A stretch of DNA of 64,000 nt. It comes from a virus. The stretch lies in the UHGV virus genome UHGV-1373641; one strand, given 5' to 3'. The translations under genes were made by a program, and so were the position numbers. The notes under the pieces were generated by a model. The model was given only the letters and a program-made list of their open reading frames with translations. It searched no databases and was not told the origin of the DNA. Every line of letters begins with the position of its first letter. Position 1 is the stretch's first letter. This document shows positions 11,898 through 56,199 of the stretch, in pieces.

Positions 11898-14033
11898 TTA
11901 AAGGAACATAATAAACGGATCTGACGCCTCTTCTTCTTTATCTTCCATAGCCCTAGCGATAGCCATAATCATAGCAACCATCGGGTCGATTTTATTTTCA
12001 TTCGCCGTTTTGGTCATATAGACAAGTTTATTTGTCGTAGATTTCAGGACAACATTACCAGCGGCGAAGTTGAGGATGGGGTCATTCTGGTGGAAAAGTT
12101 CCCCATTAAGGTACGCAGCTTCAAACTCTTTCATCGGCTCAGAGAAAGTGGCAGAGGATTGGGTAAACTCAATACATTCAAAAGCTGCCCATTCCCGGAT
12201 ATTCTGCATAAGATATTCGGCTTCCCTAGGGTCATATGCTACTTCCTGAATAGCATATTTATCAGCCCAATTTTGCAGGTCTTCTTCCAGAGCGTGATAG
12301 TCCGTTCGAGCTCCTTGCGTTACGGTCAGCCAGCCTTCATCTCGCCAGCCCCGATAATGGTCATTCTCCGGCCTATCTACAGTATCAGAAGGAAGATAGT
12401 ATTTTCCGAAAACATAGAATTTACCATCGCGCTTAAAGACGGCAACCATTGCAGTTAAGTCGACTTTAGAGGCTAAGTCAATGCCAATCCAGCATTTCTC
12501 GCCTTCAAAATCTTCCATCTTTAGATTTCTGTCAGTACAATTAAGCCATTTAGGAAAGTCAATCCATCCCACTGATTCGTTGTTCCAAACATTCAACATC
12601 TTGGTAAGAATAGAGGAGCGCTTGTACTGTGATGATTTGGCTATTTCGTATTGCTCGCGCAAGAACTCTTCGGATACGGAAACTCCGAAGTTCGGACTGG
12701 CTTTAATCCAGCACGAAAAATCTTCCCATTTATCCGTGTCATCAATGGTAAACTCCATGTAAAATAATCGGTCGTTCTTTGCTTTCCCCAACACGACCTT
12801 TCTGCCTTGCTCTACATAACGATAGCAAGGCCCTTTGATGTTCGTCCCTGCGGTAGTAGTAACAAGCAAGAGAGGATGCTGTCTAGCGCCCATACCGAGC
12901 TTCAACGAGTCATACAGCGCGTCCGAAGGATGTTCATGATACTCGTCAACGATAGCGCACTGAGGGTTACTACCATCCTTTGGGCTTCCGATAATAGGTT
13001 TGAACGTAGAAAGTGTCGATTGTGCATGAATAGACTCTTTAGTATAAGTCAGGCCGAATGCCTCTTCAAATGCTTTATTGGCAACAATCATGTCCCGAGC
13101 AATGTTGAACAGCACAAATGCCTGAACTTCCGTGGTTGCGCCACAGTATACTTCCGAACCTTTTTCTTTTTCACCAACCAACATATAGTGTCCAATAGCC
13201 GCCGCAAGGCTGCTATTGTGAGTCGGAATATACGTTTCCCCGCAAAGATACATTCCATCCTCATTATCAACCTGTATACACTTCACTGGAACGCTTTCCA
13301 CAGGCTTACAATCTGTAATGAATCTTACCACAGGCACCGTCTCGCCATCATGCCGTTTTACATTCGGGGCCACCCACACTTTAGGCTTTCTGCCATTGTG
13401 AGACAGAATTTGATGCAGACTTTCGGAGGTTACGATATTCTTACCGTCGATTTTCCAAAGATGCTCCGCGTCGGCAGTAATAACGGAACCATCACTGAAA
13501 GAAATTTCATAGCACGGCCTTCCGTACATCACTTCCGTTACGGCTACTACTCTCCGTATATCCGAATTTGGCCCATAAACGGCATCTCCGGGCTTTAAAT
13601 CATTCATCGTGACCCAACCCTCGGGAGTAGGGATTGGAGTGCTTACAGCTAAAGCCTTGCCAGCTTTTCGGGGGACGATAAGGGCGGCCTCCCTGTACCT
13701 GCGGAGATTGTTTTTCTTATCCAGCCACCCAAAGATGTTTCCAACGAAGAATTTCTGCCAAGGCTCAAGCTTTAATCTTTTTCCAGTAAGAACGCCCTTG
13801 ACATGCACCATATTTTCAATAAAACAAATTACTCGGATAGACGATTCTTCCGAAAAATAAAAATCGAGGTCTTTATTGGCAAGATCATCTTTAAAGTTTT
13901 TGCACAATGCTCTAATGTATTTACAGACCTGAATATTTCCGTTAAGAACATTGTCGGCGTACCAATGGATGTCGGTGATATGCTTTTTGTTTTGATTGAA
14001 TTGTTTAGTCGTTATGGGTTTTACATTAGCCAT
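11898..14033 (-). CDS. terL: Terminase large subunit (Terminase_1-like ATPase plus nuclease) interrupted by a mini-intein
   Basis: Walker A is VPRKAGK|...|SSLAAAIG. The C-terminal nuclease region is typical of large terminases. The MANVK start at 14033 follows SD ggagagga. Extein about 564 aa. Confidence 0.85.
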   Translation of the reverse strand: MANVKPITTKQFNQNKKHITDIHWYADNVLNGNIQVCKYIRALCKNFKDDLANKDLDFYFSEESSIRVICFIENMVHVKGVLTGKRLKLEPWQKFFVGNIFGWLDKKNNLRRYREAALIVPRKAGKALAVSTPIPTPEGWVTMNDLKPGDAVYGPNSDIRRVVAVTEVMYGRPCYEISFSDGSVITADAEHLWKIDGKNIVTSESLHQILSHNGRKPKVWVAPNVKRHDGETVPVVRFITDCKPVESVPVKCIQVDNEDGMYLCGETYIPTHNSSLAAAIGHYMLVGEKEKGSEVYCGATTEVQAFVLFNIARDMIVANKAFEEAFGLTYTKESIHAQSTLSTFKPIIGSPKDGSNPQCAIVDEYHEHPSDALYDSLKLGMGARQHPLLLVTTTAGTNIKGPCYRYVEQGRKVVLGKAKNDRLFYMEFTIDDTDKWEDFSCWIKASPNFGVSVSEEFLREQYEIAKSSQYKRSSILTKMLNVWNNESVGWIDFPKWLNCTDRNLKMEDFEGEKCWIGIDLASKVDLTAMVAVFKRDGKFYVFGKYYLPSDTVDRPENDHYRGWRDEGWLTVTQGARTDYHALEEDLQNWADKYAIQEVAYDPREAEYLMQNIREWAAFECIEFTQSSATFSEPMKEFEAAYLNGELFHQNDPILNFAAGNVVLKSTTNKLVYMTKTANENKIDPMVAMIMAIARAMEDKEEEASDPFIMFL
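13215..13655 (-). mobile_element. 147-aa mini-intein (Hint domain, no endonuclease) in the TerL P-loop
   Basis: It starts with Ala (ALAVSTPIPT...), ends ...YIPTHN, and the +1 residue is Ser. Block B has a Trp (EHLW) and there is an internal Cys (VKCIQV), so Ala1, W, C and T-H-N match the class-3 'WCT' pattern. Confidence 0.7.
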
Positions 14034-14083
14034 TGAAACTCCTCTCCTTATCTGATAAAATGATATTTTCAATATATCTTTGA

Positions 14084-14112
14084 AGTATATCTTCATTCTA
14101 TATTTTTGTCAA
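14084..14112 (-). promoter_or_regulatory. Near-consensus sigma70 promoter TTGACA-N17-TATACT driving terL
   Basis: On the minus strand it reads cttgacaaaaatatagaatgaagatatact. Confidence 0.55.
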
Positions 14113-14145
14113 GAAAAGAAAAAGGCGTCCGGATAGACGCCTTTA
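14113..14145 (-). terminator. Intrinsic terminator on the minus strand, upstream of the terL promoter
   Basis: The minus strand reads aaggcgtctatccggacgcctttttcttttctt. Confidence 0.6.
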
Positions 14146-14181
14146 AGGGAGGGATGGGAAGGAGGTAGGGAGAATTTCTGA

Positions 14182-14391
14182 TTAAGCAGTAAAGCCCCAA
14201 CGACAACCGAAGCTAGGTTCCGTTTTGCATTTAGAGGGCTTCCGATACGGGCAAATACCGTGTTTCGGAGGTTCGTGTACTCCGTCTTTGACAATCGGAA
14301 TCCATGCCTTGCATAATGCACAAGGTATCCATCCGAAAGTCTTAGATTCCGATTGTCCTGTATCTATCCTGCGATCAGATTCGATGTTCAT
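14182..14391 (-). CDS. Small Cys-rich hypothetical protein
   Basis: CALCKAW...CPYRKPSKCK...GC. GC content is elevated relative to the genome. Confidence 0.35.
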   Translation of the reverse strand: MNIESDRRIDTGQSESKTFGWIPCALCKAWIPIVKDGVHEPPKHGICPYRKPSKCKTEPSFGCRWGFTA

Positions 14392-14393
14392 GA

Positions 14394-14918
14394 TTATTTC
14401 GCCTTAGAACCGTATTCTTCGGGATACGGCTTATGGAAATGGTGCTTTTTATGGTATTCCTTGTCAGAGCAGGTCATTTCTTCCAGAGCGTAGCAGATTG
14501 CAGCGGCGGCATGTTTAAGCTCGTGTACGAATTGAGCATGGGTCATCGTGGGAGGCGTGGCGCGCATTCCTTCATAGGCGTGCATCATCTCTCCGACTTC
14601 CATCTCAATGATATTCATGTGCCCGCCCGGTTTATCCATGTAGGGATACCACGTATGGGGCGGATTTTCAATAATGTCTTCAATCTCATGATACACTTCG
14701 GAATATTCCGACATTTCATGAATGGCGCACTTATACATGAGATAATGGCACAATTCTTTATGTGCTTTAAGCAGTTCACGAGTGCTTTCGACATGGGGCA
14801 TTGACCGGACTCCGGCTTCACAATGCTCGCCAATTTCATGTTCAAGTTCTTCCAAGAATGCAAGTTCTTCTTTATATTCTTCTTTTGCAATCTTTTCGGC
14901 GGATTTGCTATCGTGCAT
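14394..14918 (-). CDS. His/Glu-rich hypothetical protein
   Basis: Many His residues (HEMSEYSEVYHEIED, HAYEGM, HHFHKPYPEEYG). No HEXXH motif. Confidence 0.4.
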   Translation of the reverse strand: MHDSKSAEKIAKEEYKEELAFLEELEHEIGEHCEAGVRSMPHVESTRELLKAHKELCHYLMYKCAIHEMSEYSEVYHEIEDIIENPPHTWYPYMDKPGGHMNIIEMEVGEMMHAYEGMRATPPTMTHAQFVHELKHAAAAICYALEEMTCSDKEYHKKHHFHKPYPEEYGSKAK

Positions 14919-14938
14919 GATTCATTTCCTTGTGGTGG

Positions 14939-15328
14939 TTATATAATGGGCGTGGTTTCCGCTGTCAAAGCATCCACACGCTGTTGAAGAAGATCAATTT
15001 GATTCAAATTTTCGTTGTTTCGTTCGGTAGCCAAAGTTTCTCCGGCTAGAATGCCTCCGGCGGCATTACCAAGCACAGCTTCCTCTGCAACCGTATCTAT
15101 GATAGCATCCTCAGCTACGTCTTGGGCGATATTTTCAGCGATGCCTTTCGGGGAAATTTGCTTTTTAACGAAATCAGCGACTTTATCCGCATCAATATGC
15201 TTAGACGCATAGTCTATGGCTTCACCGGATTTATCTTTGATAAATTTACCAGCCTTATTCGAAGCCTTTTTCCCTTCTTCATCAAAGATAAGCCATCCTA
15301 ACAGGATACCTAGTCCTAATCTAAACAT
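14939..15328 (-). CDS. Hypothetical protein with an N-terminal TM or signal anchor
   Basis: MFRLGLGILLGWLIF, then a soluble Ala/Asp-rich region. Confidence 0.4.
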   Translation of the reverse strand: MFRLGLGILLGWLIFDEEGKKASNKAGKFIKDKSGEAIDYASKHIDADKVADFVKKQISPKGIAENIAQDVAEDAIIDTVAEEAVLGNAAGGILAGETLATERNNENLNQIDLLQQRVDALTAETTPII

Positions 15329-15435
15329 GGTATTTCCTTAATAAAAACGCAGCGCGAGAAGATAAAAATCGTCCCACGCTGCGCGGTAGGGGTTACGTAG
15401 TCATAGGCTACGTATGCTCCCAAATCCCGGATACT

Positions 15436-15873
15436 TTATTTCTTAGCGGGGGCTTCCGACTTGTCAAGTTCCGGGGAAGCGAGGGAAGCAGAGGCGGTTG
15501 CGGGAAGCAAAGATGTCCCGCAGTTTACGATGGGTACTCCGTTCGGGCCGGGGCAAGACACATCAATAGCCATGATGTTACCCGCAGGATTGCTCGTTTG
15601 AGTCATACGAATGCGGCAGCCGCATCGAACGAAACGAGAAAGTTGTCCAAGGGTAAGATAGTTCCCAGAGGTGTTGAGTACGTTCGTAAACGTAACGCCT
15701 CCAGCAACAATCTGAACTTTTTCATCAGCACAAGGACTGATGCACAAGTTCCTTCCAACTACGATATCAAATCTTCCTACCGGAATACTGGTAGCGAGAG
15801 TAAGAGTCGCAGTCGTGGCGGTTGTAGTGATACTTGCTACACGGATGCACGGAATGCAGCAGCGATTGCACAT
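15436..15873 (-). CDS. Cys/Thr-rich hypothetical protein in the GC-rich island
   Basis: SD ggaga. MCNRCCIPCIR plus a TTTATTATLTLA run. Local GC is about 55%, against about 40% for the genome. Confidence 0.4.
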   Translation of the reverse strand: MCNRCCIPCIRVASITTTATTATLTLATSIPVGRFDIVVGRNLCISPCADEKVQIVAGGVTFTNVLNTSGNYLTLGQLSRFVRCGCRIRMTQTSNPAGNIMAIDVSCPGPNGVPIVNCGTSLLPATASASLASPELDKSEAPAKK

Positions 15874-15948
15874 AGTAGTTCTCCGTACATTGTGGTTAAT
15901 GAGAGGGGTTATTAAGCCCCTCTCATATCAGGGTGAAATCAGCCCGTG

Positions 15949-16518
15949 TTAGGCGGTGACGCCACCGCAACCACAAGGATTCACGCACGGGGAGCAACCC
16001 ACGGGGAAGAAGGGCGGACGCTTGACAGTCTGGCAGAAACCAGCTTCAATGGAGCGTTCCAGGGCGTTGAAACGACCGTCATTGTACATCTGCGCCTTGA
16101 GCCCCTGAATTTCGTTGTTCTGAGCCATCAGGGTCATGTCGCGGGTACGAATCTGGTCTTCGAGCATCTGAGTACGCAGAGCCGAGAAACCAGCGTCCTG
16201 ATTAGAGATAATCGTGCGGAAGGCAGTTTCAAGCTGCTGCGTCAGCACAGCGTTCTGCGCAGTCATGTTGCACTTGAGTTCCAGAACATCGCGGTCGGTC
16301 TGGCAGTTATCCGTCATGGTCTTGTGACCAAGCACGGAGCGCAGCGCGACCAGATCAGCAAGCTCGGTACCAGCAACAGCGGCGGCACCACCGCAATTAC
16401 CACGACCGAACAGGCCGTTACCACCGCAGCCGAAGCCACCGCCGAAGATCCCGAAGAACAGGAGCAGCACGATAAAGATCCAGCCGAAGTTCATGGAAGA
16501 TTCGCGTTCAGATTCCAT
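15949..16518 (-). CDS. Membrane-anchored coiled-coil protein with a Gly-rich segment and a Cys-rich C-terminus, in the GC-rich island
   Basis: SD ggagaatgactt. N-terminal TM WIFIVLLLFFGIFGGGFG, a central heptad-like region, and C-terminal CSPCVNPCGCGG. An ORF on the opposite strand is also open. Confidence 0.4.
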   Translation of the reverse strand: MESERESSMNFGWIFIVLLLFFGIFGGGFGCGGNGLFGRGNCGGAAAVAGTELADLVALRSVLGHKTMTDNCQTDRDVLELKCNMTAQNAVLTQQLETAFRTIISNQDAGFSALRTQMLEDQIRTRDMTLMAQNNEIQGLKAQMYNDGRFNALERSIEAGFCQTVKRPPFFPVGCSPCVNPCGCGGVTA

Positions 16519-16597
16519 AAGTCATTCTCCATAAAAAAGTTTTTGGGTATATGTGAAGAGAAGAAACTGCGAATTTCTTCTCGAATCACCGAAGGTA

Positions 16598-16966
16598 TTA
16601 TTTTATTCCAAGTTTTTGAAGGCGTTTAGCCAATTCGTCGTTTCCGGGATTAGGAACGTTTGAAGCAGGGGCTGGACCTCTTTGACGAAGCGCGGCCTCA
16701 AGCTGGTTCCCCATCTCGGTAATTTTGTCGATGCTTCCGGGAGCTATGGTATTCAGCCCCATTTTAATAGCAGGATTGTCCAAATGTTTCTTCATCCCCG
16801 CAAGGATTTGAGCATCAATACCAAACTTCTGGGCGACTTGAAGCGCACCCTCAAGAGTTGGTTGGTAATTACGAGATTCGGAGATAGCCTTTTGCGCGGC
16901 GTCAATTACCTTTGAGTTTCCTCCGGACAAGGTATTTACAATGCTCATTATCTTTTGTACGTTCAT
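16598..16966 (-). CDS. Hypothetical protein
   Basis: ORF in the late operon. Confidence 0.45.
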   Translation of the reverse strand: MNVQKIMSIVNTLSGGNSKVIDAAQKAISESRNYQPTLEGALQVAQKFGIDAQILAGMKKHLDNPAIKMGLNTIAPGSIDKITEMGNQLEAALRQRGPAPASNVPNPGNDELAKRLQKLGIK

Positions 16967-17478
16967 CGTTTATTACCTCTATTGTTGCCTTGTTCCATTT
17001 TAACTGGAGGATTCTTTGCATCTTCCTTAATCACGTCATCTACGAATTTCTGAGTGTCCTGAGTTTCCTCATTGACGGACTTAGTTGAAGCGATATTCGA
17101 TGAAATGACTTGAATCTTATCGGTAAGACCAGCAATCATCTCAGCCAGTTTAGCATTCTGCGCACGGGATTCCTGCAATTCCTTCAAAGCGTTATTAAGA
17201 ACTTCTTCTTGCGTAGGTTCAGGCTTTATAATCCCGTTTTCTACGAGCATCTTATAATAAGACTCTGCCTTATCAATCGCTTGTATAAGCTGCGCTTTAA
17301 GTTTTTCGTGAATCTCCGTGGCTACCCCGATAGGTTGGTTCCCGGCGTTGACATCCCATGTGTAAATAACACCATCAGAACTTACCATCGCGTAGCTATA
17401 TGTGTTCATAGGCATAGAAGAACGCTGCGTAGGAGAAGAATATGTGGATTGATTAAATCCTGTAGTTGCGTTAGACAT
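16963..17478 (-). CDS. Hypothetical coiled-coil protein
   Basis: ORF in the late operon. Confidence 0.45.
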   Translation of the reverse strand: MSNATTGFNQSTYSSPTQRSSMPMNTYSYAMVSSDGVIYTWDVNAGNQPIGVATEIHEKLKAQLIQAIDKAESYYKMLVENGIIKPEPTQEEVLNNALKELQESRAQNAKLAEMIAGLTDKIQVISSNIASTKSVNEETQDTQKFVDDVIKEDAKNPPVKMEQGNNRGNKR

Positions 17479-17577
17479 AATAAAGCCCCCAAGTGATGAT
17501 TAACATCATGGGGGCAATATAGCGCAGAGTTTTAAATATTGAAATGCGTCCACGACCGTCGACGGAGTTATTTAAGA

Positions 17578-18858: not shown

Positions 18859-19100
18859 TATTTAGCCTCCTTCTTGCTTAATTTCCTTACTAGCCAAGCT
18901 GGAGGCGTTTGAGTTTTGACTTGATAAAACTCAGGTTTTACCTTTCTCAGAAAAGTCGCTCCGCATACGGCACAAGTATAGGTCGATCTCTCTTCCATTC
19001 CTAATCGATGTAAATGAGTATCTTCAAAAGCTACTACGGTTGTTTGATAAAAAGCCCTTTCTTTGCAAACGGGACAAATATTAGCGTCGGATGTAGCCAT
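18858..19100 (-). CDS. Zn-ribbon protein
   Basis: CPVCK...CAVCG. Confidence 0.4.
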   Translation of the reverse strand: MATSDANICPVCKERAFYQTTVVAFEDTHLHRLGMEERSTYTCAVCGATFLRKVKPEFYQVKTQTPPAWLVRKLSKKEAK

Positions 19101-19118
19101 TGTTTACCATTGCCACTT

Positions 19119-19933: not shown

Positions 19934-19945
19934 GTTAAAATCCTT

Positions 19946-43060: not shown

Positions 43061-43236
43061 TATTTTTTCTCCGAATTTCCTTTAAATTCGCTCTCCAGTT
43101 CCGCCAACTCTTTTTTAATGAGTTCATATTCAGTACAGGTTGGGTCGACGCCTTGCCGCAAAAGCTCCTCTACCCAATCCAAATCACGTTTCTTGAAATA
43201 AATAAGCTTAGAAAGGGTGGCTTTATCTTTACTCAT
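43060..43236 (-). CDS. Small protein, translationally coupled to the portal gene
   Basis: ATGAGTAA overlaps the portal stop. Confidence 0.35.
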   Translation of the reverse strand: MSKDKATLSKLIYFKKRDLDWVEELLRQGVDPTCTEYELIKKELAELESEFKGNSEKK

Positions 43237-44557
43237 TGTCTTCGTCATTCCGTTGATCGCCATTGTTCGTCTCTCCGTTTTTAGGTTTTTTCGGAATTGT
43301 ACTACCTGATTGAGGAATCTGTGCATCCATTACGTCCGCTTCCTTAACAATGGATTCTACAGTCCTCATAGCTCCCTGCATAAATAGCTCATCACCGCCC
43401 TTGACGGGATTCATTTCAGACAGGGCTCGAACTTCGTTAGGAGTCATATACCCGGAATTGATGGCAGTACGATAAACTTCGGCACGGCTTTTCGCGTCGC
43501 CACGAAGCAATCCATCATCCATGAACTTGAAATACAGACCTTCCTTTCTACGCTGTTCTTCTGTGAGCAAGAATTTATTGGCACTCGTTTCAATACGCCG
43601 ATACCACGGATCAAGCGTATGAATTTTATGCTGCAAGAAAAGCTGTTCGGAAGATGCGTACGTTGTGGTCTTCATATAATCAAAGACCATGATTGGCATC
43701 ACTCCCCAATTTCGACAAAGATCCGCAACTTGGAATTGACGATTCTCAACAAACTGAGCGTCCTGATTAGTCATGGACATCTGCTGATATCGAAAATCGT
43801 TGCTCAAGATAATTGTCTTATTGGCATTTCTTGAACCGCTATATTCTCTCTCCCACGTCTCACGAATACGCTTTCTCTGTTCCTCTGTCAAGTCATTTAC
43901 TGCGGTAAGAATTCCGGAAGGTTTAACTCCATTCTTTAAAGATGTTCCAAGATATTTATCCGAAGACAAAGAAAGACCAATAGCATTTTTTGCCAGTTTG
44001 ACAGGAGACAGTCCACGAATAACATCGTACCCTCTCCACTTCAAATGCCACATATCCTTTTCAGGAATTTCAATATATCGCCCGTTTTCGGTCGTTACAA
44101 AATATTTTGACCGAAGCCCAAGAGAATCAGATTCATCCATCTGAACATTAACCATGCCGGGAGGGAAAGGATACATCTCCTTAATCTCTCCACGTACTCT
44201 TACAAGCCAAACGAAAGCTTCTCCAGTCAGCGCGAGATGCAAGCCGAGAGTCTCCCGAAATTCAAATTGACTTTGATATGGATTTGGGCCTTCCTCAAAA
44301 AGCCAATACAATGGGTGGTTTTCCGCTGGCTTTCTAGTATTTCCCTTTTTTTGATACAAACGAAAAGGAACCTGAGCGATACCATTGGAAATAACGGAAA
44401 CACAAGCCAAGACGACAGAGCAATCAAGCGCTGTCCGCGTAGTTACTGGAGTACCGGAATCGGAAACAGAGATCGAATTTAAGAACGAATCGTCCATATT
44501 CGATTTAGACTCTGAATCCTTTTTTCGGAAGTTATTGAAAATATTTAAAAAACCCAT
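43229..44557 (-). CDS. Portal protein (HK97-family portal)
   Basis: Its size and position. Hydrophobic core LDCSVVLACVSVISNGIAQVPFRLY. Confidence 0.7.
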   Translation of the reverse strand: MGFLNIFNNFRKKDSESKSNMDDSFLNSISVSDSGTPVTTRTALDCSVVLACVSVISNGIAQVPFRLYQKKGNTRKPAENHPLYWLFEEGPNPYQSQFEFRETLGLHLALTGEAFVWLVRVRGEIKEMYPFPPGMVNVQMDESDSLGLRSKYFVTTENGRYIEIPEKDMWHLKWRGYDVIRGLSPVKLAKNAIGLSLSSDKYLGTSLKNGVKPSGILTAVNDLTEEQRKRIRETWEREYSGSRNANKTIILSNDFRYQQMSMTNQDAQFVENRQFQVADLCRNWGVMPIMVFDYMKTTTYASSEQLFLQHKIHTLDPWYRRIETSANKFLLTEEQRRKEGLYFKFMDDGLLRGDAKSRAEVYRTAINSGYMTPNEVRALSEMNPVKGGDELFMQGAMRTVESIVKEADVMDAQIPQSGSTIPKKPKNGETNNGDQRNDEDNE

Positions 44558-46127: not shown

Positions 46128-46571
46128 CTACAACTTTACGATTCTTTGGTTATTCGATGCCAACTTTATTCCGAATAAAGGTTCTATATAAGATGGTTTT
46201 GTTTTATCATACATTCCGAGCTTGGCATATTTTAACAGGTGGTGAAGCGGCTTAGGAATTTTTTCATATCTTGTCCATAACCAAATCTCCTGAAAATACG
46301 CATTCAATCGAATGATAAAGTTTTGAAGAGAAATCAAATTCTGATCAAGAGGTTCTCCTCCCAAAATCCAAACTTTTTTTACTAATAGTTCACTGTCTTT
46401 AAAAAGTCCAGAATTTTCTTGAGTTTTAAGCCATTCCTGATACGGAATCCCCTGATTGAATTCCCAAAGTTCTTTGTTATGACATCCCTCACAATGAGGT
46501 GCCTTACATCCGGAAAGATATATTTCCAGTGCCCGATGAGCCAGATTAAATTCTGTGCCCGCTACTCGCAT
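46128..46571 (-). CDS. nrdG: Anaerobic ribonucleotide reductase activating protein
   Basis: SGCKAPHCEGCHNKELW parallels the E. coli NrdG SGCVHECPGCYNKSTW radical-SAM cluster motif. Adjacent to nrdD. Confidence 0.65.
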   Translation of the reverse strand: MRVAGTEFNLAHRALEIYLSGCKAPHCEGCHNKELWEFNQGIPYQEWLKTQENSGLFKDSELLVKKVWILGGEPLDQNLISLQNFIIRLNAYFQEIWLWTRYEKIPKPLHHLLKYAKLGMYDKTKPSYIEPLFGIKLASNNQRIVKL

Positions 46572-49507
46572 CTCATTTCTTCCTTACCATAGAACTGGCG
46601 ATTGGGACGGTCTTTTTCACGGCGAACCTTATTCCAATTTTTTACATTAGTAAAGAATCCGACAACACGGGTAATCTCCTCAGACCATTCTTTGCCACAG
46701 GTAGGGCATCTGTCGGAACCCACCCAAGTATGGTTATCATCGCAGATCCGAAGAAGATAGTTTACTGCCCAATAAACAACGCCAGACTTTGCGGCATAGA
46801 TGATAAGGTCTTCGATGTTCTTCGTGTCCTCAATTCTCTCACCAACATTGACATGGCAAATCGCTCCACCCGAAAACAATCCATCGAATTTTCCTTGGAG
46901 TCTAATACGGTCGAGCATATTGGCTTTAGCGATAAGCGGAATAAACTGATTCGAATAGAAGGATACTCCACAATCGTAACCAAGGACTTTATCTTTCTTC
47001 GCGAGTTTCACAGAGGATGACTCGGCAGGAACCTGTTCACAATTATGAGGAGCTTGATACAATTCTTGAGCTTCATCAATCCAAAGGTTAATCTGTTCAA
47101 GAGTCCGCATCACAAGATCTTGCCCATCCTCATCCAAAATGTCCTTTCCGAGGATGCTCACTGCTTCATAGAGTCCGGTGACTCCAAAAGTCGAATATTG
47201 TTTAGTAATATCCATGTATCCATGCGTGTACAAAGGCGCTGCGCCAAGGTCAATTCGACGCTGTACAATCTTGCGTTTAGCGTTATTGATTTTCGCTGCG
47301 GTAAAAAACGCATCCCTAAGCTTATCAATAAACACGCCCTCATCTCCCCCCGACTGCATTGCAAGGCGAGGGAAGTTTGCCGTCACAACACCAAGAGATC
47401 CAATTTTTGTGCTTCCGGAGCCGAAAGAATTAAAATACTCATTTTTCCTGTCCGAGCGCAAACGACAGTTATGGGTGATTACGCCATTGGGCAAAGTGAA
47501 GTAAGGTTCTTCCGGATTCTGCATTTCAAAACAATATACGTATTCTTCGTCGTAAGGAACTTCTTCGACACTTTCTACCTTAAAATACACAGAGTTGTTT
47601 CTTACCTTGTATACGCCCGGATGCTCACGACGATTCTTCAAATCATACCAACGGATACAATATAGGGGGTAATTCCGAGAATAGTTCTTTCCGCGAATCT
47701 CCACCAACTCATCAGTGCGATCCGACAGGTCGATGTTGCTAACCATACCCAGAGAAGTAAGGATGGCTTCTCCAGTTTCGATAAGCTCTTTAGACGTAGA
47801 ATAAATACGATTGCTATTTCCTCCGTCAGTTGCATACCATCCGGCGATGATGCCCTTGCGGAACTCTGTGGATTGAAGAAGAATGTTCATATCAAACGAC
47901 TTCTCTTCCGCATAAGAACCTTTAACATACTTCCCAATAATATCATATATCGCCTTAGAATAAATTTTGGCAAACACAACTTTGTTCCGGGACGGATTAA
48001 TATGGAAGTCCTCTTCAATACCCCAATCTTTTGCGGCTTGAATAAGCGTGTCGATACAACCGCGCTTCGCTTCACTCAAAGAAAAAGTCACATCGTAACT
48101 TTCGACGCCCTCTCTTGCATATCGGCTTCCATCGCCAGCATAGGCCCCAATGAGATACCCCTGAGCATAGGTAAGGTGCTCATCTTTTTCATTATAAGAG
48201 TTAAGCTCCCTCATACTGAATCCGATATAATCATCAGTAGTCAAATCAACAGTAGTTTTATCCCCAGAGAGAGTATAGTTGATATGATTATCCGTTACAA
48301 CAAATTCCTTCTTATTAGAAAGAACGACCTTATACATCTTATGGCCCAAAACAGGAAGCATCACGGGCTTTGCCTTGACCCAAGACCCATTGTGGAATAC
48401 AGCGAAGTTCTTCCTATAAAGATCATAGTTGGATGATTTTACGATATCACGAATATCCGCAAGAACCACGCCATTACTGGATTTCGTAAGGACTTTCTGC
48501 CCTCCAGAAAAACAGCATGAACTCAAAGTTGACATTTTGCCATTATACATATTGATAAATCCGAACTCTTTGTTCTTCTCAGCAATGAACTTTACAAAGT
48601 CCTTATCTACGATATTTCGGTCGTCATCAATAGAAAAACAAGCTGTCGTTACGGGAAACGTAAGAGGCGTTCTCCGCATCTCTTCATTCATGGCGTCGAG
48701 GAAAAGCCCCTGCAACTCATGAACAGTTTCAGGATTAGCGGCTTTTCCGTCCATCATGTAATCAGGACAGAGGGATTCAAGGAAATTACGGTCGAATACA
48801 GAAAGATTGGAAAATGGGCTTTGATTTCCCCGGAATTCCCAATTCACCGTATAAATAAAATTGATAAGTTTTTCCTTTACATATGTTTTATAATCATCAA
48901 CTTTAATCCGACCATCGTATCCGATCTTTTTCATTTTTTCTACGAAAAGAGATGCCACAATAAGAAAATCTGCAAATCCGGTAGCTCCCAAGGTTGAGTT
49001 TGCAGCAACAACCATAAACTGTTCTACTTGACGCACAAACGTCTCCAAAGATTTAGGAGCGCTCACACGAACTCGCTTAGATACGCCTTCCAAACCATTA
49101 AGAGCGATATCATAAGTAGAATAATTAAAACAATAGGGAAGGGCTACATCAGTGGAGTCGTTAACATAAAGATCACCACGAAGCACTTTTTCCACGACAG
49201 TATTAGCTTCAAGGAGCCCATAATCCTTTTTAATCTGTTTCCAGAGGAGGAAATAACTATTGTACTTTTTAATGGGCTTCGGCATTTCATGATTATACTC
49301 AATAGATGTCCGCGCACATACATTGGCATTAGAGTCTACGGAAACATCTGCCGTTGTAGTATCCGTATTAAAAAAATCTTTAGAAAACTTATTGATATCC
49401 ATCTGATCGCCAATTCCATCCAAGGTCAAAAAGTCCCTGCCATATTTAGCGATAAGATACATCATAAGGTCATAGAACTCTTGATCCCAAGTAATCTTAA
49501 TATGCAT
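46562..49507 (-). CDS. nrdD: Anaerobic ribonucleoside-triphosphate reductase (class III) interrupted by an intein
   Basis: C-terminal Zn ribbon CDDNH...CPTCG plus glycyl-radical-like RVVGFF. Extein about 632 aa. Confidence 0.75.
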   Translation of the reverse strand: MHIKITWDQEFYDLMMYLIAKYGRDFLTLDGIGDQMDINKFSKDFFNTDTTTADVSVDSNANVCARTSIEYNHEMPKPIKKYNSYFLLWKQIKKDYGLLEANTVVEKVLRGDLYVNDSTDVALPYCFNYSTYDIALNGLEGVSKRVRVSAPKSLETFVRQVEQFMVVAANSTLGATGFADFLIVASLFVEKMKKIGYDGRIKVDDYKTYVKEKLINFIYTVNWEFRGNQSPFSNLSVFDRNFLESLCPDYMMDGKAANPETVHELQGLFLDAMNEEMRRTPLTFPVTTACFSIDDDRNIVDKDFVKFIAEKNKEFGFINMYNGKMSTLSSCCFSGGQKVLTKSSNGVVLADIRDIVKSSNYDLYRKNFAVFHNGSWVKAKPVMLPVLGHKMYKVVLSNKKEFVVTDNHINYTLSGDKTTVDLTTDDYIGFSMRELNSYNEKDEHLTYAQGYLIGAYAGDGSRYAREGVESYDVTFSLSEAKRGCIDTLIQAAKDWGIEEDFHINPSRNKVVFAKIYSKAIYDIIGKYVKGSYAEEKSFDMNILLQSTEFRKGIIAGWYATDGGNSNRIYSTSKELIETGEAILTSLGMVSNIDLSDRTDELVEIRGKNYSRNYPLYCIRWYDLKNRREHPGVYKVRNNSVYFKVESVEEVPYDEEYVYCFEMQNPEEPYFTLPNGVITHNCRLRSDRKNEYFNSFGSGSTKIGSLGVVTANFPRLAMQSGGDEGVFIDKLRDAFFTAAKINNAKRKIVQRRIDLGAAPLYTHGYMDITKQYSTFGVTGLYEAVSILGKDILDEDGQDLVMRTLEQINLWIDEAQELYQAPHNCEQVPAESSSVKLAKKDKVLGYDCGVSFYSNQFIPLIAKANMLDRIRLQGKFDGLFSGGAICHVNVGERIEDTKNIEDLIIYAAKSGVVYWAVNYLLRICDDNHTWVGSDRCPTCGKEWSEEITRVVGFFTNVKNWNKVRREKDRPNRQFYGKEEMRCE
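47468..48514 (-). mobile_element. 349-aa intein with a LAGLIDADG homing endonuclease, in NrdD
   Basis: CFSGGQKVL... (Cys1), LAGLIDADG motifs YLIGAYAGDGS and IIAGWYATDGG, C-terminal ...GVITHN then the +1 Cys (CRLRS). Confidence 0.8.
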
Positions 49508-49591
49508 GTGCTTTCCTCTTTTTTTTATTTATGTTTTTATACATTTTTCAATGGCTAAATATTGACATCTAGCCATTGAAATTTTTTCTAT

Positions 49592-50047: not shown

Positions 50048-50061
50048 GTAGATTCTCCTTA

Positions 50062-50715: not shown

Positions 50716-50880
50716 CCACCCTACCTTAATATTTTTTATCTACTATTTTCAATTCTTACGTTTTCCCAATATTCTCTTTCGGCTTTTTCACATTTTTGAA
50801 AACCCCAAATGAAAACAGAAACAAAAACCGCCAATAAAATCATACCTTTGATTTTCATAATAACTATTTTCTTTCTGTGT

Positions 50881-51486
50881 TTATTCATTATTACTCTCTC
50901 CCTTTACGGCAGGGATAAACCTATCATCAAGATACATGAGAATCTGGTCGCAGAAAAACCTCCATTCTTTCAGCTTATGGTTCTTGCGCTGATGGTACAT
51001 ATTCCGAAGAACCTTATAATTAGTACATACGATTCTCCGCTGCAAAAATCCTTCGGGGAGATTTTCTTTTACACCTTCAAAGTCCTTTTCGTCAATCATT
51101 TTATTCAGAATATCGATAATTTCCTGACGAACTTTGTCGGAGAAATCGTCCTTCGTGAGATGCCGCTTCATAATCGTGTGCATCGTAGACTCGGACTGTT
51201 TGGATGTTCCCACACGATAGGTATCGAATTGCGACCAGAAATAGCGGGGTGCAGTAATATCGATCCAAACTACGATACTTTCTAAAAATTTATTATGCCC
51301 TCCATCAAGTCCAGCAAGTTTATGCGCACGAGCAGAAAGTTTATTTAAAGTATTTTCGGCTTTCACCCTCCCATCGCATTCGATGTCGCCTATAGTTTTA
51401 TCAGACGTAAGGCCATAAGACAAACCCATCCCAAGAAACGCAGCGACGTGTCCAGCTTCCCCAATAAACTCAACTTTCATGTTCAT
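50881..51486 (-). CDS. ThyX-like flavin-dependent thymidylate synthase (tentative)
   Basis: Its size (about 200 aa) and the motif block RYFWSQFDTYRVGTSKQSESTMH resembling the ThyX R..F.eQ..RhR..S..SqS region. The MNMKVEF start follows SD. Confidence 0.35.
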   Translation of the reverse strand: MNMKVEFIGEAGHVAAFLGMGLSYGLTSDKTIGDIECDGRVKAENTLNKLSARAHKLAGLDGGHNKFLESIVVWIDITAPRYFWSQFDTYRVGTSKQSESTMHTIMKRHLTKDDFSDKVRQEIIDILNKMIDEKDFEGVKENLPEGFLQRRIVCTNYKVLRNMYHQRKNHKLKEWRFFCDQILMYLDDRFIPAVKGESNNE

Positions 51487-51499
51487 TTGTTTTTCCTTC

Positions 51500-52621
51500 T
51501 TATGCTTTAAAGTTATATACTGGCTTAATAGTGAACAAGGCTTCCACCGATTGAAGATTGTTACGAATCTCTGATCCATCCTTGTATGCCATAGGGCTTT
51601 CGTCAAGAGTAGAAGTATTTACGCAAGAAGAATAAATACCTTCCATTTCATTTTTAAAATCATTCATATCAAGACTGCGCTTGGCTTCACCTCTGCTTAG
51701 TCTACGTCCAGCTCCATGAGGTGCGGAATAGTTCCAATCTTCAAGCCCTTTACCAAAACCAAAAATAATACCGTCTCTCATATTCAAAGGGATCATAAGA
51801 GCCTGTTCTTTTTTAGCGGAAACGGCTCCCTTGCGCAGCATGAACACATCATTGTCAATACGTTCTATATAGTTATGAACGGTTTCATAAACATCATCTT
51901 TCTTAATCCCAATGTGTAGCATGATATCGTTAATGATCGCCTCACGATTCAAAGAGGCATAATATTTCATGATTTCCATATCATACATATATTCATCGAA
52001 CATCTCCCCTGAAAGATACGCTAGATGTTTGGGGGTGCCCGGACATTCTTTAATAGCGACATTTTGATAATAAGTAGCTACTTCTTTTCCAATATTCCTA
52101 GAACCAGAATGTACGGTAAGGAAATAAGAAAAAGTACCATCGAAATTATCGGATTCCCCTATTTCAATAAAATGATTCCCTCCCCCCAAAGTCCCAATAC
52201 TGTGCTCCGCACGAGCGATATTAACTTCATTACGACACGCAAGCATATTCAAATTGATGGCGCTAACCAATTCATGCTTGTCGTTACGAATATTAAATCC
52301 TGCGGGAATATGCTTTCGAATAATTCGATCAATTTCTTCAAAAAAGCTATTGTTAAGTTTATCGTCCAAAGTAAATTCACAGGAAAGTAATCCACAACCT
52401 ATATCGACTCCGACAAGATTAGGAACGATTTTCTTGTTTTCGATAGTCATCGTCGTTCCAATAACGCATCCAGCGCCAGCATGTACATCTGGCATAATGC
52501 GAATCCTACTACCTTCGGTGAACTCTTGATTACACAATTCGATAATTTGAGCCATAGCTGTCGGCTCAACATAATCCGTGAAAACCTTAGCTGTACTTAC
52601 TGAGCCTTTTACTTCAAACAT
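51500..52621 (-). CDS. rtcB: RtcB-family RNA ligase
   Basis: DVHAGAG, VGVDIGCGL, GGGNHFIEIG and APHGAGR motifs. Confidence 0.8.
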   Translation of the reverse strand: MFEVKGSVSTAKVFTDYVEPTAMAQIIELCNQEFTEGSRIRIMPDVHAGAGCVIGTTMTIENKKIVPNLVGVDIGCGLLSCEFTLDDKLNNSFFEEIDRIIRKHIPAGFNIRNDKHELVSAINLNMLACRNEVNIARAEHSIGTLGGGNHFIEIGESDNFDGTFSYFLTVHSGSRNIGKEVATYYQNVAIKECPGTPKHLAYLSGEMFDEYMYDMEIMKYYASLNREAIINDIMLHIGIKKDDVYETVHNYIERIDNDVFMLRKGAVSAKKEQALMIPLNMRDGIIFGFGKGLEDWNYSAPHGAGRRLSRGEAKRSLDMNDFKNEMEGIYSSCVNTSTLDESPMAYKDGSEIRNNLQSVEALFTIKPVYNFKA

Positions 52622-52643
52622 TTGAACTCCTTATTTCCAATAA

Positions 52644-53180
52644 TTAATCTTCACTACAAAAAATAGCAATGAAATCTTCTTTTTGTCCGAGTCTTGCATC
52701 ATCCCAATCTTTCATTAATGTATAAGCAACTTTATGCGCTGAGGAACATGCATCTCCCTTTATTGCCTCTCTTATCGCCGCCATTACTTCTACGAGTCCA
52801 TATGTATATTTAGTATCATAGTTATACCATCTTACAATTTCTTCCGCTTTTAATAACTTAGCATATACTATGATAAGCTCCTCATCAGTAACCTCTCCAA
52901 TTGCATATGCCTCAACTATATCAAGAGCATTCAAAGACAATTCATTGAAAAGCAAAGACGGGACCTGCCTGATACATCGTACAGCAAAAAGACGAACTTC
53001 CGGAGCTTTAATAGTTCTCAATGCCCAAATTGCTGTATCGAGTCCATTTGAATCAAGAATAGTTTTAAAAGATAAGGGCTCATCATCAGCTTTCATTTTT
53101 CCAAGGTACTTAAGAAGTCTCTGCCAGTCTTGGGTAGAAGGGCCGTACTCACGAATTTCATTCAATGTAGTGTAAAACAT
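52644..53180 (-). CDS. Hypothetical protein
   Basis: SD aaaaaggag. Confidence 0.45.
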   Translation of the reverse strand: MFYTTLNEIREYGPSTQDWQRLLKYLGKMKADDEPLSFKTILDSNGLDTAIWALRTIKAPEVRLFAVRCIRQVPSLLFNELSLNALDIVEAYAIGEVTDEELIIVYAKLLKAEEIVRWYNYDTKYTYGLVEVMAAIREAIKGDACSSAHKVAYTLMKDWDDARLGQKEDFIAIFCSED

Positions 53181-53207
53181 TCTTACGCTCCTTTTTTTAC
53201 TAGAAAT

Positions 53208-53255
53208 ATTTGCTTCCGATGAATGGAGTATTCATCAATCGGAAGCAAATGTCAA
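53208..53255 (-). promoter_or_regulatory. 13-bp perfect-stem hairpin overlapping a candidate promoter for the 52644 gene
   Basis: atttgcttccgat ... atcggaagcaaat. On the minus strand, TTGACA-N17-AATACT embeds the stem. Confidence 0.4.
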
Positions 53256-53268
53256 CACGTTTTTTAGG

Positions 53269-56199
53269 TTATTTTCTATAAAATTCTCCCCTCCATCCTT
53301 CGGCCTTTACTGGCAGACCTTCCGCCCATTGAGGAAGCTTGCACATGATATTTTCAAATTCCTCGACAGACCCAAACCCTTTAGGAACCTCAGCAATGAT
53401 TTCATCGTGAACATGAAACACTACCGGATAGTTGGCTTCTTCGAGATTGAACATCGCATTCACCATCAGATCTCTACAGAAAGCTTGTGTAACATTTTCT
53501 GAAAGTATGAGATGGTTAAGCGGCCTTCTCACAAATTGTTTTTCTGGCGTCAAGGTCATCGCCGTAACAAGCTTCTTGAACGCTGGCTTTTCTGGAGTAG
53601 ACCATGCCATCTCCACATCTTCAAGTTTAGGCTCGAAGTAGAAGAGGAACCTGCCACTAGGGAGCTTCATAAGGAGGAATCTCTTATAGTATTGGAATGA
53701 TACTCCACGATAAGAATAAATTCCGCCCTTATTCGTCATAGCCATGACAGCAGCTTCAACGAGTTTGTGCCAAAGCTTAACCGTCATTGGGTGCCCGTCT
53801 CTCCATGCAGCAATAATCTTCTTTCCTTCCTCTTCATCAATGCCCATTCTATCAGCTCCAAAGCGAAGGAACGCGCCATAACCACCTCCGTATCCACAGT
53901 TATGCACAATGCGTGGACCGCAGGATGTATGTATCATAAACCTGCTTTTATCTCCACAATTCAAAAGATCATAAACTTTTTCTATTTTAGTATAACCATC
54001 TCTATTAGATAAAATGCTCCCAGTAAGAATAATTTCATCGCTATCATCTTTTTTGATAAACTTTAAAATCGCCATATTTATTTTATTATAGTCCTTAATA
54101 ACGGCTTCACTCACTTTAATATTCAGATAATTTTGAGCTGTTGAATACTTAGAAAAAATCGTAGCTAAAAAGACGATAATGGAGCATACATATTTAACTT
54201 TATCTTCAAGACTCGTGTTCCTTAAGCTTTCACCCAAGTATACATAAACACCTTTTCTACTTTTAGAATCAACAAAGGATACATTAAAGTCATCTTCGTC
54301 AAAATCGGAAAGAATTACTTCAATTCCCATTTCAGCTATAGTTACTTTTACTGGGTATTTCTTCAAACTATAAATAATTTTATCTTGAACTTTTGAGATT
54401 TGATAACTAACCCAACTAGAGAATATTTGATATTGCTCGCTAGAATAAACTTTCCCATCTCCTAGCCATTTACACAATTCAATAGCTGCATCGGAGTCTA
54501 TCCAAATATTTTCATCCATCAACCATTTTTGATCAGGCGTAGATTCTACTCCCAAAAAATTAACGATTTCTTTAATACCTTGGCAATATGCTCCATCTGT
54601 CAAACACCAGTTTTCTCCATCCCATACATAATCATCTTTAGTTATGTCGACGATTTTTTTTATTCCATAGCTCGTATAAACCATTGTATCCGCAGAGAAG
54701 CAAGCCAACGTAGCCGTCTTACCTACTTGACGCTGCTTCTTATCCACATCTTCATATTTCACCCCATAGATAGTCGTAGCTGCAACTTTATACGGGTCGA
54801 GGCCATCCCTAAAACCTTGAAGAACATACTCTTCGCCAGCGAGATATGCCAATGCTCGGGCTTCAATCCCACTATAGTCGGCACAGATAAAATCGTATCC
54901 TTTTCTAGCGTGAATCATTGCGCGAAGGCAATCGGAGGCAAGGACTTTAGGGTCTTTCCAATACTGCTGGATAAGATCTAAATCCCCGCTAGCTGCAAGT
55001 TCGATATCCATTTCACTGATATCATAATTATCCAAAGGCTTGGAACCTTCGGGTATATTCATATTATTTGTTGAAGGTCTAGTCAAATTTTGCGGTTGAA
55101 TAAGAGCACCAGCAAATCTTCCCGTAGAGGCTCCATGATATATCATCGTTCCATGCGCCCTGCCATCATAGCACGAAGTACAAAGCATGGTCTGATATTT
55201 TGCCGTAGAAGACATGGCAATAGTCTGACGAATCTCAAGGAATCTACGAACATCGGAGGGGAGATCAGTCCGTTCAAGAAGGTCGGAGATAGCTTGCTTG
55301 CTTGCCGAATCAGTATCAACCCCACGAGATTGAAGCCATTCAATAATAGACTTGGAAGACTTCATGGTAGATACAGCACCATACGTAATCTCGGAAGCTT
55401 CCTCCGTCAAAATATCTTCTACTTTATTAACCATATCCATAATTTTGACCGCGTGAAACCTGTCAATTCCTACTCCACGGTCATTGATCGTCTGGTCGAG
55501 CCGCCACACTTTAAGCTCCCGCTCAGGGATAGGAGGAAGCTCCATAAAAAGAACTTCTTCCGCAACCACGTCCTGTCGACAATATTCAACATATCGTTTA
55601 AACATTGGCTCGTCACAAGGATAGACAATATATTGATGGTAGTTTTTAATGGTAGGAATGCCACCTTTTGAAAGCACGGCATAGACGTACTCTTGAGTAG
55701 CCTTAGCCTTTTCGGGGTCTGGAAATGCGGAAAGTTCGGCTTTACGGAATTTCCTAGGCTTTGACATTTTCATCATCAGCTTATGCCCTTCATTATCCTT
55801 CTGAGGAGCGTCTTTTCGCCAAACCTTTACCGCTTGTTCCAGTTTACGGGGAAGGTTGCACATAAGGGCCTGAGACATCGTGCATCGAATTTTCTCTAAT
55901 GGCAATGGCTTAAACCAGAGAGGCTCCATCTTGAACTTCCAAATGGCTCTTTCGAAAGGGGCGTTATGTGCTGCAATCTCTTCACAATTATTAATAATAT
56001 CCTGCAATTCATCGTCGCTCAATTCAGTATCAAGAAAATGCCTATATGCCGGAGCTACCCATACACGAGCCTCCTGTCCACATATACGGACGGCAAGCAT
56101 CATCACCTCAGTATCAGGGTGCGCAGCATATGCGTAAGCTCCACAGGTTTTAATATCTACAGGGGACCTCGTTTCAAAGTCAATTACGGATTTCATCAT
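53269..56199 (-). CDS. Family A DNA polymerase (3'-5' exonuclease plus polymerase) interrupted by an intein in motif B
   Basis: DFETRS (Exo I), DYSGIEARALAYL (motif A), RQVGKTATLA|intein|CGYGGGYGAF (motif B), HVHDEI (motif C). Strong SD. Confidence 0.8.
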   Translation of the reverse strand: MMKSVIDFETRSPVDIKTCGAYAYAAHPDTEVMMLAVRICGQEARVWVAPAYRHFLDTELSDDELQDIINNCEEIAAHNAPFERAIWKFKMEPLWFKPLPLEKIRCTMSQALMCNLPRKLEQAVKVWRKDAPQKDNEGHKLMMKMSKPRKFRKAELSAFPDPEKAKATQEYVYAVLSKGGIPTIKNYHQYIVYPCDEPMFKRYVEYCRQDVVAEEVLFMELPPIPERELKVWRLDQTINDRGVGIDRFHAVKIMDMVNKVEDILTEEASEITYGAVSTMKSSKSIIEWLQSRGVDTDSASKQAISDLLERTDLPSDVRRFLEIRQTIAMSSTAKYQTMLCTSCYDGRAHGTMIYHGASTGRFAGALIQPQNLTRPSTNNMNIPEGSKPLDNYDISEMDIELAASGDLDLIQQYWKDPKVLASDCLRAMIHARKGYDFICADYSGIEARALAYLAGEEYVLQGFRDGLDPYKVAATTIYGVKYEDVDKKQRQVGKTATLACFSADTMVYTSYGIKKIVDITKDDYVWDGENWCLTDGAYCQGIKEIVNFLGVESTPDQKWLMDENIWIDSDAAIELCKWLGDGKVYSSEQYQIFSSWVSYQISKVQDKIIYSLKKYPVKVTIAEMGIEVILSDFDEDDFNVSFVDSKSRKGVYVYLGESLRNTSLEDKVKYVCSIIVFLATIFSKYSTAQNYLNIKVSEAVIKDYNKINMAILKFIKKDDSDEIILTGSILSNRDGYTKIEKVYDLLNCGDKSRFMIHTSCGPRIVHNCGYGGGYGAFLRFGADRMGIDEEEGKKIIAAWRDGHPMTVKLWHKLVEAAVMAMTNKGGIYSYRGVSFQYYKRFLLMKLPSGRFLFYFEPKLEDVEMAWSTPEKPAFKKLVTAMTLTPEKQFVRRPLNHLILSENVTQAFCRDLMVNAMFNLEEANYPVVFHVHDEIIAEVPKGFGSVEEFENIMCKLPQWAEGLPVKAEGWRGEFYRK
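53899..54702 (-). mobile_element. 268-aa intein in DNA polymerase motif B, with a possible degenerate LAGLIDADG
   Basis: CFSADTMVYT (Cys1, block A), internal LCKWLGDGKV, C-terminal PRIVHN then the +1 Cys. Confidence 0.7.

Follow-up and report, generated by a model that had tools for sequence, protein, structure and literature searches.

Three inteins at active-site motifs of TerL, NrdD and PolA in an uncultivated tailed phage

In the 64,000-nucleotide (nt) stretch of the virus genome UHGV-1373641 analyzed here, hereafter the window, the minus-strand genes for the terminase TerL, the anaerobic ribonucleotide reductase (RNR) NrdD and the family A DNA polymerase PolA each contain a long in-frame insert within an active-site motif, which raises the question of whether these segments are inteins, removed from the proteins that carry them, or domains native to those proteins. 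The answer reached here, in which we have high confidence, is that all three are genuine inteins, each most likely excising itself to rebuild the active site of its enzyme. The identification is built on the boundaries of the inserts, their homologies, the conservation of their residues, their polymorphism in the phage population and the HINT fold of the ends of the PolA insert; that all three splice we infer from their intact catalytic residues and from their insertion into indispensable motifs. Each precursor would be made inactive, its P-loop, SCCR loop or O-helix being broken, and activity would appear only after autocatalytic splicing. A first-pass annotation of the window had reported the three open reading frames (ORFs) and their junction strings exactly where we find them, and had described active-site insertion as the usual niche of inteins, which agrees with our finding that all three belong to described intein types at described niches, namely the P-loop of TerL, the catalytic loop of RNR and motif B of the polymerase. 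Only the PolA intein, which is devoid of the expected histidines and has an orphan center, might surprise a specialist.

The TerL precursor ORF (11898-14096, minus strand) spans 732 amino acids (aa) from the first ATG and carries Pfam TerL_ATPase and TerL_nuclease matches, its relatives being called at 711 aa from M22, which corresponds to base 14033. The insert, 147 aa long (13215-13655, minus strand; precursor residues 148-294), splits the Walker A motif (PRKAGK|SS), with junctions that read ...PRKAGK|ALAVSTP...IPTHN|SSLAAA. Its removal leaves a protein of 585 aa (564 aa when counted from the relatives' start), and at the same point PRKNGK|S(A/V/I)LAA.IGLYM is found in intein-free homologs of about 560 aa, the gap in the multiple alignment being exactly 147 residues. 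Once the insert is removed, TerL aligns unbroken with HK97 TerL (6Z6D) through Walker A (ARKNGKT), and the E-value moves from 1e-28 to 2.5e-34. The insert itself matches end to end, by phmmer, the solved DnaB-1 inteins of M. chimaera and M. smegmatis (6RIX, 6RIY and 6BS8; E=2e-31 to 8e-30), with 50.4% identity to MchDnaB1 (6RIX; E=1.9e-31). DnaB-1 inteins also lie within a P-loop GK|S, and mutagenesis has established that they follow a class-3 splicing route.

The catalytic set of MchDnaB1 consists of His65, Trp67, Cys124 and Thr143, followed by His-Asn. In the alignment, W67, C124 and T143 of MchDnaB1 fall on W67 (13455-13457), C126 (13278-13280) and T145 of the TerL intein, as do H65, H146 and N147 on their counterparts (Thr145-His146-Asn147, 13215-13223), so that the full WCT triplet is present, with Trp at B:12, Cys at F:4 and Thr at G:5. 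Position 1 is Ala (13653-13655), leaving no Cys, Ser or Thr nucleophile there, and position +1 is Ser (13212-13214). Among 28 related inteins, A1, H65 and W67 occur in all and C126 and T145 in 25. An obligate block-F Cys nucleophile and a branched intermediate have been shown for Msm DnaB-1, Mle DnaB and Bvi IcmO. By homology to the DnaB1 inteins of Msm, Mle and Mch, we propose that Cys126, activated by His65, Trp67 and Thr145, would attack the Lys-Ala1 bond to give a block-F thioester branch, after which the N-extein would pass to Ser+1, Asn147 would cyclize, and an O-N shift would restore the GK-S of Walker A. The evidence thus supports a class-3-type mini-intein in the P-loop, much as the first-pass annotation had described it (147 aa, WCT pattern, within Walker A). 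It is highly improbable that this intein follows a class-1 or class-2 route instead: the class call is drawn from a sequence signature and homology, which leaves some room for such a route, yet Ala1 excludes class 1, the combination of Ser+1, the complete WCT triplet and His65 is that of inteins experimentally found to require Cys F:4, and the identity to inteins with a proven class-3 route reaches 50%.

Since it has no endonuclease domain, the TerL intein cannot home, and it appears fixed in this lineage, because the TerL cluster members listed are all 705-732 aa long (15 listed among the 40 read of a cluster of 172) and the identity to the closest intein-free TerL is only 61%. Most homologs at the TerL P-loop site are larger (340-430 aa) and LAGLIDADG-bearing; phages of Mycobacterium, Escherichia and Klebsiella, among others, commonly have homologous inteins in their TerL genes.

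The NrdD precursor ORF (46562-49507, minus strand; 981 aa, Pfam NRDD), which is followed by the nrdG activase gene (46128-46571, minus strand; phrog_626 match), contains an insert of 349 aa (47468-48514, minus strand; precursor residues 332-680) with the junctions ...TLSSC|CFSGGQ...VITHN|CRLRSD, and 632 aa remain after its removal. Against Thermotoga maritima NrdD (4COI/4U3E; E=2e-108) the precursor aligns in two blocks, with the break at SCC|R, and 21 NrdD homologs of 631-632 aa that are about 98% identical read LSSCCRLRSD, without the intein, while in about sixty further homologs this point is occupied by a homologous intein of about 345 aa. In the T. maritima enzyme (tmNrdD), the motif 328-SCCR-331 has been aligned to 288-MGCR-291 of T4, and the C329A and C330A variants are each inactive, so the intein separates two essential cysteines. 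At the insert, Cys1 (48512-48514), block B TDNH (T74 to H77), the THN end and Cys+1 (47465-47467) are all in place. From knowledge of the T4 enzyme and the alignment in the tmNrdD paper, we take Cys+1 to be the counterpart of the T4 radical Cys290.

Across 46 homologous inteins, C1, H77, D128, D230, T347, H348 and N349 are kept in 90% or more. Two of these, D128 (48131-48133) and D230 (47825-47827), are the catalytic aspartates of the LAGLIDADG helices YLIGAYAGD128GS and IIAGWYATD230GG, and with both preserved the two-motif endonuclease looks intact. Scanned alone, the intein scores 25.7 bits against Pfam LAGLIDADG_3 (PF14528; cut-off 22.5) and 30.7 bits against Intein_splicing, under the cut-off of 35.8, and phmmer against PDB sequences returned nothing useful. 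The 349-aa LAGLIDADG intein between two conserved cysteines that had been proposed earlier is borne out by the SCCR alignment and the LAGLIDADG_3 match. Splicing would follow the canonical class-1 route, in which an N-S shift at Cys1, transfer to Cys+1 and cyclization of Asn349 would rejoin the SCCR cysteines. In an NrdD 81% identical, from a related phage (P0242), the same intein has LAGLIDADG motif 1 as AYTGYGRR, with Asp replaced by Tyr, and an altered motif 2, so that, unlike the intact copy of the window, it represents a decaying endonuclease in a sister lineage.

The PolA precursor ORF (53269-56199, minus strand; 976 aa, Pfam DNA_pol_A) carries an insert of 268 aa (53899-54702, minus strand; precursor residues 500-767) that begins with Cys1, ends in VHN and is followed by Cys+1 (53896-53898), with the junctions ...GKTATLA|CFSADT...RIVHN|CGYGGG and a protein of 708 aa after removal. 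Alignment with Taq polymerase stops at L498, the equivalent of F667, one residue ahead of the insert, and counting on from there places the insertion between the equivalents of Taq G668 and V669, inside the F667-Y671 interval of the O-helix, or motif B. Intein-free PolA homologs of 707 or 708 aa and 93-94% identity read RQVGKTATLACGYGGGYGAF (RQVGKTATLA|CGYGGGYGAF), and the DNA of sister contigs breaks exactly at the intein ends, 54702 and 53899. In 25 PolA homologs the same LA|CGY site holds homologous inteins, 107-374 aa long, among them mini-inteins of 107-145 aa with TxxH, and the 268-aa form recurs unbroken in 11 further distinct PolA-cluster sequences. When modeled by AlphaFold2 with an 11-sequence alignment, the insert reaches a pLDDT score (for predicted local distance difference test) above 90 for residues 1-60 and 241-268 and of 81 for residues 61-70 (the single-sequence model, with pLDDT 38, was uninformative), and the top 38 PDB matches of the model in Foldseek are inteins or HINT domains, with a probability of up to 1.0. 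In this model, the splicing ends have the HINT fold. The Taq alignment, the intein-free alleles and this fold together support a class-1-type intein inside motif B, the first-pass annotation having already placed a 268-aa intein there, and with it the junctions of all three genes prove seamless against intein-free homologs, which was the check the first-pass annotation had proposed.

Several observations weigh against this overall interpretation. Pfam scans of the precursors and of the inserts alone recognized neither the TerL nor the PolA intein, phmmer with the PolA insert against PDB sequences found nothing useful, and the best Foldseek E-value for the PolA model is weak (5e-3). In addition, the PolA intein lacks both the block-B His, the most conserved intein residue, absent naturally from a very small subset, and the block-F His of its distant homologs, where it has Ser; its center stays below a pLDDT of 50 even with the alignment. 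The Foldseek E-values are weak because only about 85 residues align. The Pfam result is what the idea of native, lineage-specific domains that are never excised would predict for two of the inserts, but this idea is barely credible and we reject it on the intein-free alleles: alleles 93-99% identical exist from which the PolA and NrdD inserts are precisely missing, solved inteins align with the TerL insert at E=2e-31, the ends of the PolA insert fold as HINT, and the His-Asn|nucleophile geometry is present in all three. Pfam silence is not evidence against an intein here, because Pfam missed both the TerL and the PolA inteins.

The missing histidines of the PolA intein call for closer attention, since the earlier claim, right about the identity of the element, overlooked both the absent block-B His and the lack of a recognizable endonuclease. 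Block B reads TPDQ, in a column where distant homologs have TPDH, TPEH or TPSH, and residues 1-70 contain no His at all; nevertheless, every allele of the clade with an intein of 268 or 374 aa keeps TPDQ. The absence is not disqualifying, because rare natural inteins without a block-B His exist. It could be argued that at least one insert, most likely that of PolA, is a splicing-dead relic, its host gene being inactive or working with the insert retained. The substitution of Gln for the most conserved intein residue and of Ser for the block-F His would fit such a relic, as would the want of an endonuclease and an orphan AT-rich center suggestive of decay. Against this, the insert interrupts the O-helix of a polymerase that appears to be the replicative one, TPDQ is kept throughout the clade while Cys1, His-Asn and Cys+1 are intact, the frame stays open through DNA of 30% GC and is unbroken in the 11 further distinct sequences, and natural inteins that splice without a block-B His are known, e.g. 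the Tko CDC21-1 group, all of which makes a dead relic very unlikely. Our preferred reading remains that the PolA insert splices, probably by a class-1-type route through Cys1 and then Cys+1, with some substitute for the block-B His.

The GC content of the PolA intein is 0.32, compared with 0.446 in the exteins, and falls to 0.30 in the orphan central segment of 176 aa (53989-54516, minus strand). The counterpart in sister phages is a 374-aa intein (L009:11498-12619) in which a 285-aa ORF (L009:11671-12528) is nested in another frame of the same strand; this ORF matches HNH-endonuclease phrog_374 (E=2e-28), without a Pfam match, and the in-frame translation of the same stretch likewise gave no Pfam match. 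The ends of the two inteins share 82-84% DNA identity, while the central 503 nt are unrelated. In Pfam, PHROGs, PDB and the phage collection, including blastn and tblastn against phages, the window's center had no match, and the intein has no ORF in other frames or antisense and no HNH remnant. Two apparent leads were set aside. The sole match among 1.84 billion representative proteins, a coiled-coil of perfect tandem repeats aligned in 13 stretches, was judged spurious, and CKWLGDGKV, considered as LAGLIDADG motif 1, aligned with the NrdD inteins in hhalign over 19 columns at a non-significant probability of 1.3%. The frame of the center stayed open in 0 of 20,000 shuffles, but an open frame is expected in any case, because the C-extein downstream must be translated.

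From this comparison, the PolA intein of the window seems to have lost its HNH cassette, an AT-rich, in-frame orphan segment of 176 aa standing in its place, and it is probably no longer mobile by itself. That it combines class-1 splicing without the block-B and block-F His with a center that is an undescribed functional module, instead of inert filler left after the loss of HNH, is quite doubtful; if so, the module could be a homing-endonuclease or DNA-binding fold of a new kind, or a switch that makes splicing of the replicative polymerase conditional.

The NrdD intein differs from the other two in its trace of mobility. Intein-free alleles of 632 aa are found in at least six sister contigs, which are 96-97% identical in DNA and lack precisely the intein; the DNA alignment breaks upstream at the intein boundary and on the downstream side picks up again about 20 nt inside the C-extein, with clustered synonymous changes over this interval, the intein-free site of one such contig (L003) reading ...AGTTCGTGC|TGTCGGCTTAGATCAGAT... 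Around the intein lies a tract of raised, mostly synonymous extein divergence (47261-48788, minus strand; nt ~720-1200 of the spliced gene, with the junction at nt 993). Differences from intein-free alleles amount to 0-2 per 60 nt over the first 720 nt and rise to 5-14 per 60 nt at nt ~720-1200, peaking in the bin that contains the junction, with 20 differences within 60 nt on either side (P=6e-5), and in the immediate flanks (45 nt upstream and 60 nt downstream) all changes are synonymous. A second divergent tract in the C-extein (spliced nt 1320-1800, window 46661-47141; 5-13 differences per 60 nt), separated from the first by about 120 nt of near identity, could reflect patchy conversion or the footprint of another mobile element. 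At PolA, by comparison, a junction-centered tract was sought and is absent, with 1-2 synonymous differences within 60 nt.

The presence or absence of the intein among near-identical phages, together with the mostly synonymous flanking tract, suggests that it arrived by homing with co-conversion of the flanks, and with its endonuclease apparently intact it is probably still homing. The intein-bearing gene looks recombinant, because the intein-free alleles of two genome backgrounds (L003 type and L009 type) are nearly identical to each other, differing at 8 of 1899 nt, and the window differs from both in the same tracts. The tract bears on the opposite side as well: it reveals recombination linked to the intein and by itself proves neither the direction of transfer nor the action of the endonuclease. 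A divergence tract between two alleles having no inherent direction, the polymorphism might instead stem from precise loss of the intein, or replacement by an intein-free allele, in the sisters; the decayed endonuclease of P0242, with Tyr for Asp in the first motif, would place the intein in the wider group for some time. We regard this as unlikely, given the near identity of the two intein-free backgrounds, from both of which the window deviates in the same places, and the two intact LAGLIDADG aspartates. We infer that the endonuclease is active and that the direction was gain, recent homing into this genome remaining the favored explanation.

Further intein sites exist in relatives of these genes. 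For the window itself, a panel of 115 homologous inteins searched against the six-frame translation matched only TerL, NrdD and PolA, giving no fourth intein; the SNF2 ORF, considered as a carrier on account of its length (634 aa, 508 aa in relatives), owes the extra residues to an upstream start codon. The motif-B intein is the only one in the window's PolA, whereas alleles with two or three inteins are found among relatives. In some relatives (L004:2485-4955, P0379 and P0377), PolA is encoded by two adjoining genes whose stop and start codons overlap as TAATG, with an apparent natural split intein at TGRF|SGALIQ, its N-intein about 91 aa long and its C-intein 24 aa long (MRTYDILNAGPKNRFMANGKIVSN|S); at this site (~55000-55030) the window is uninterrupted, with TGRFAGALIQ. 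Another PolA intein lies at SEN|C...VHN|CTQAF in P0012, P0013, P0376 and P0378, where the window has the equivalent LSEN|VTQAF (53490-53520). In the NrdD family, at least four further insertion sites are used, and an insert near aa 480 is present in one homolog (P0276). The genotype with three inteins recurs across independent assemblies.

The window covers part of the genome, of about 88 kb, of an uncultivated, tailed, siphovirus-like phage. Records of the lineage are confined to metagenomes and a single third-party-annotated (TPA) GenBank entry, and many metagenome assemblies hold near-identical contigs of 85-92 kb; a megablast search of 50,697 phage records with the TerL gene gave zero matches, so that no isolated phage in that set is close in DNA. 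Read along the minus strand (~63 kb to 11.9 kb), the genes run from SNF2 helicase, DUF2800 nuclease, Enc34-type SSB, PolA, RtcB, dUTPase and NrdD/NrdG through portal, prohead protease, HK97-fold capsid, connectors, tape measure and J-like tip protein to TerL. The three intein-bearing genes have no group I intron, since Rfam and tRNA scans of the window found no element.

TerL, usually located beside the portal gene, ends the late operon here, about 30 kb downstream of the portal (43229-44557) and beyond the tail genes, and relatives share this placement. Just past its 3' end, on the opposite strand, is a 123-aa ORF (10579-10950, plus strand), the syntenic gene of which in L012-L014 carries a Pfam HNH domain (PF01844); its placement is reminiscent of the small HNH proteins that assist HK97-type terminases.

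The replication module varies among sisters in other respects. The RtcB RNA ligase of the window is intact (373 aa, 51500-52621), while in L004, L005 and L008 (~6225-7350) two ORFs are called, of ~150-209 aa and 162 aa. Between PolA and RtcB, the window has a function-unassigned ORF of 178 aa (52644-53180, minus strand; phrog_18326), and in L003-type sister contigs, which have no counterpart of it, PolA adjoins RtcB. IS605-family OrfB/TnpB (Cas12f-like) genes sit at different spots of the module in sisters (L004:5031-6209 and L009:7420-8595), with none in the window. L003 and L005-L008 contain a stand-alone gene of 251 aa, faintly marked by Pfam as GIY-YIG and NUMOD3 (L003 8015-8770), at the place where the window has a ThyX-like ORF (50881-51606).

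If all three inteins splice, the packaging motor, the supply of deoxynucleoside triphosphates and the replicative polymerase of this phage would each depend on a separate protein-splicing step, one of them using the rarer class-3 chemistry and another proceeding without the canonical block-B His. The sister genomes amount to a natural allele series, comprising intein-free, mini-intein, LAGLIDADG-bearing, nested out-of-frame HNH and split-intein forms, that suits the study of intein gain, of turnover of the endonuclease cassette and of decay in a single abundant phage population. The 147-aa class-3-type TerL intein and the 24-aa C-intein of the relatives could also serve as protein-engineering parts. 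The current understanding of inteins is unchanged by these findings, which extend known families into an uncultivated phage lineage.

How do these elements compare with known systems? The genome of mycobacteriophage Bethlehem is about 52 kb long. The first-pass annotation had considered the intein density of the window unusual, and three inteins per phage are indeed uncommon, but Bethlehem offers a precedent, with inteins in its TerL (gp10), RDF (gp51) and DnaB, and the sisters with up to three intein sites in PolA alone soften the claim further.

For the PolA intein, a relative is found in the Jerseyvirus PolA (Salmonella phage vB_SenS-EnJE6, annotated as "intein-containing DNA polymerase precursor"), which belongs to the same PolA family and lies in a DUF2800/SSB module. 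Its intein resembles that of the window in the homologous splicing ends, the motif-B location, Cys1 and Cys+1, but it is inserted 4 residues upstream (RQIGKA|C compared with TATLA|C), is 23% identical, keeps the block-B His (TEDH) and has an unrelated central region. Inteins of the Tko CDC21-1 type share a class-1 architecture with Cys1 and the natural absence of the block-B His; there is no sequence relationship, and the -1 residue of PolA is Ala, not a bulky Leu. The out-of-frame gene nested in the sisters' intein is comparable to a recent report, in a survey of actinobacteriophages (bioRxiv 10.1101/2025.01.02.630785), of an out-of-frame homing endonuclease inside an intein, EndoVII-like there and HNH here. 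This likeness belongs to the sister loci, the window's PolA intein having lost the cassette.

For the NrdD intein, homologous nrdD inteins occur in Clostridium phage c-st / D-1873, Nitratidesulfovibrio phage SRB7757 and a human faecal phage, at 100% query cover and 46-54% identity, and the intein matches positions 334-663 of the 978-position NrdD profile phrog_25611 (PHROG 25611) with E=2e-76. A putative intein interruption of c-st nrdD has already been noted in the literature. The likeness to c-st consists in a homologous nrdD intein; unlike the c-st type, the NrdD intein of the window is polymorphic within one phage population and is accompanied by a co-conversion-like tract.

For the TerL intein, placement in the TerL P-loop with the invariant Lys on one side and Thr/Ser on the other is the "classic" TerL1-a site, and both P-loop TerL inteins and class-3 TerL inteins have been described; the class-3 TerL inteins discussed in the mycobacteriophage survey lie at sites c, d and e, compared with the P-loop (a/b) site here. 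The mycobacterial DnaB-1 inteins (6BS8, 6RIX/6RIY and Mle) share with it about 50% identity over 147 aa, the absence of an endonuclease, the P-loop GK|S site and the complete residue set of Ala1, His B:10, Trp B:12, Cys F:4, Thr G:5, His-Asn and Ser+1. What distinguishes the present case from DnaB-1 and from the TerL inteins of actinobacteriophages is the host protein, an HK97-type (Terminase_1) TerL of an unisolated metagenomic phage.

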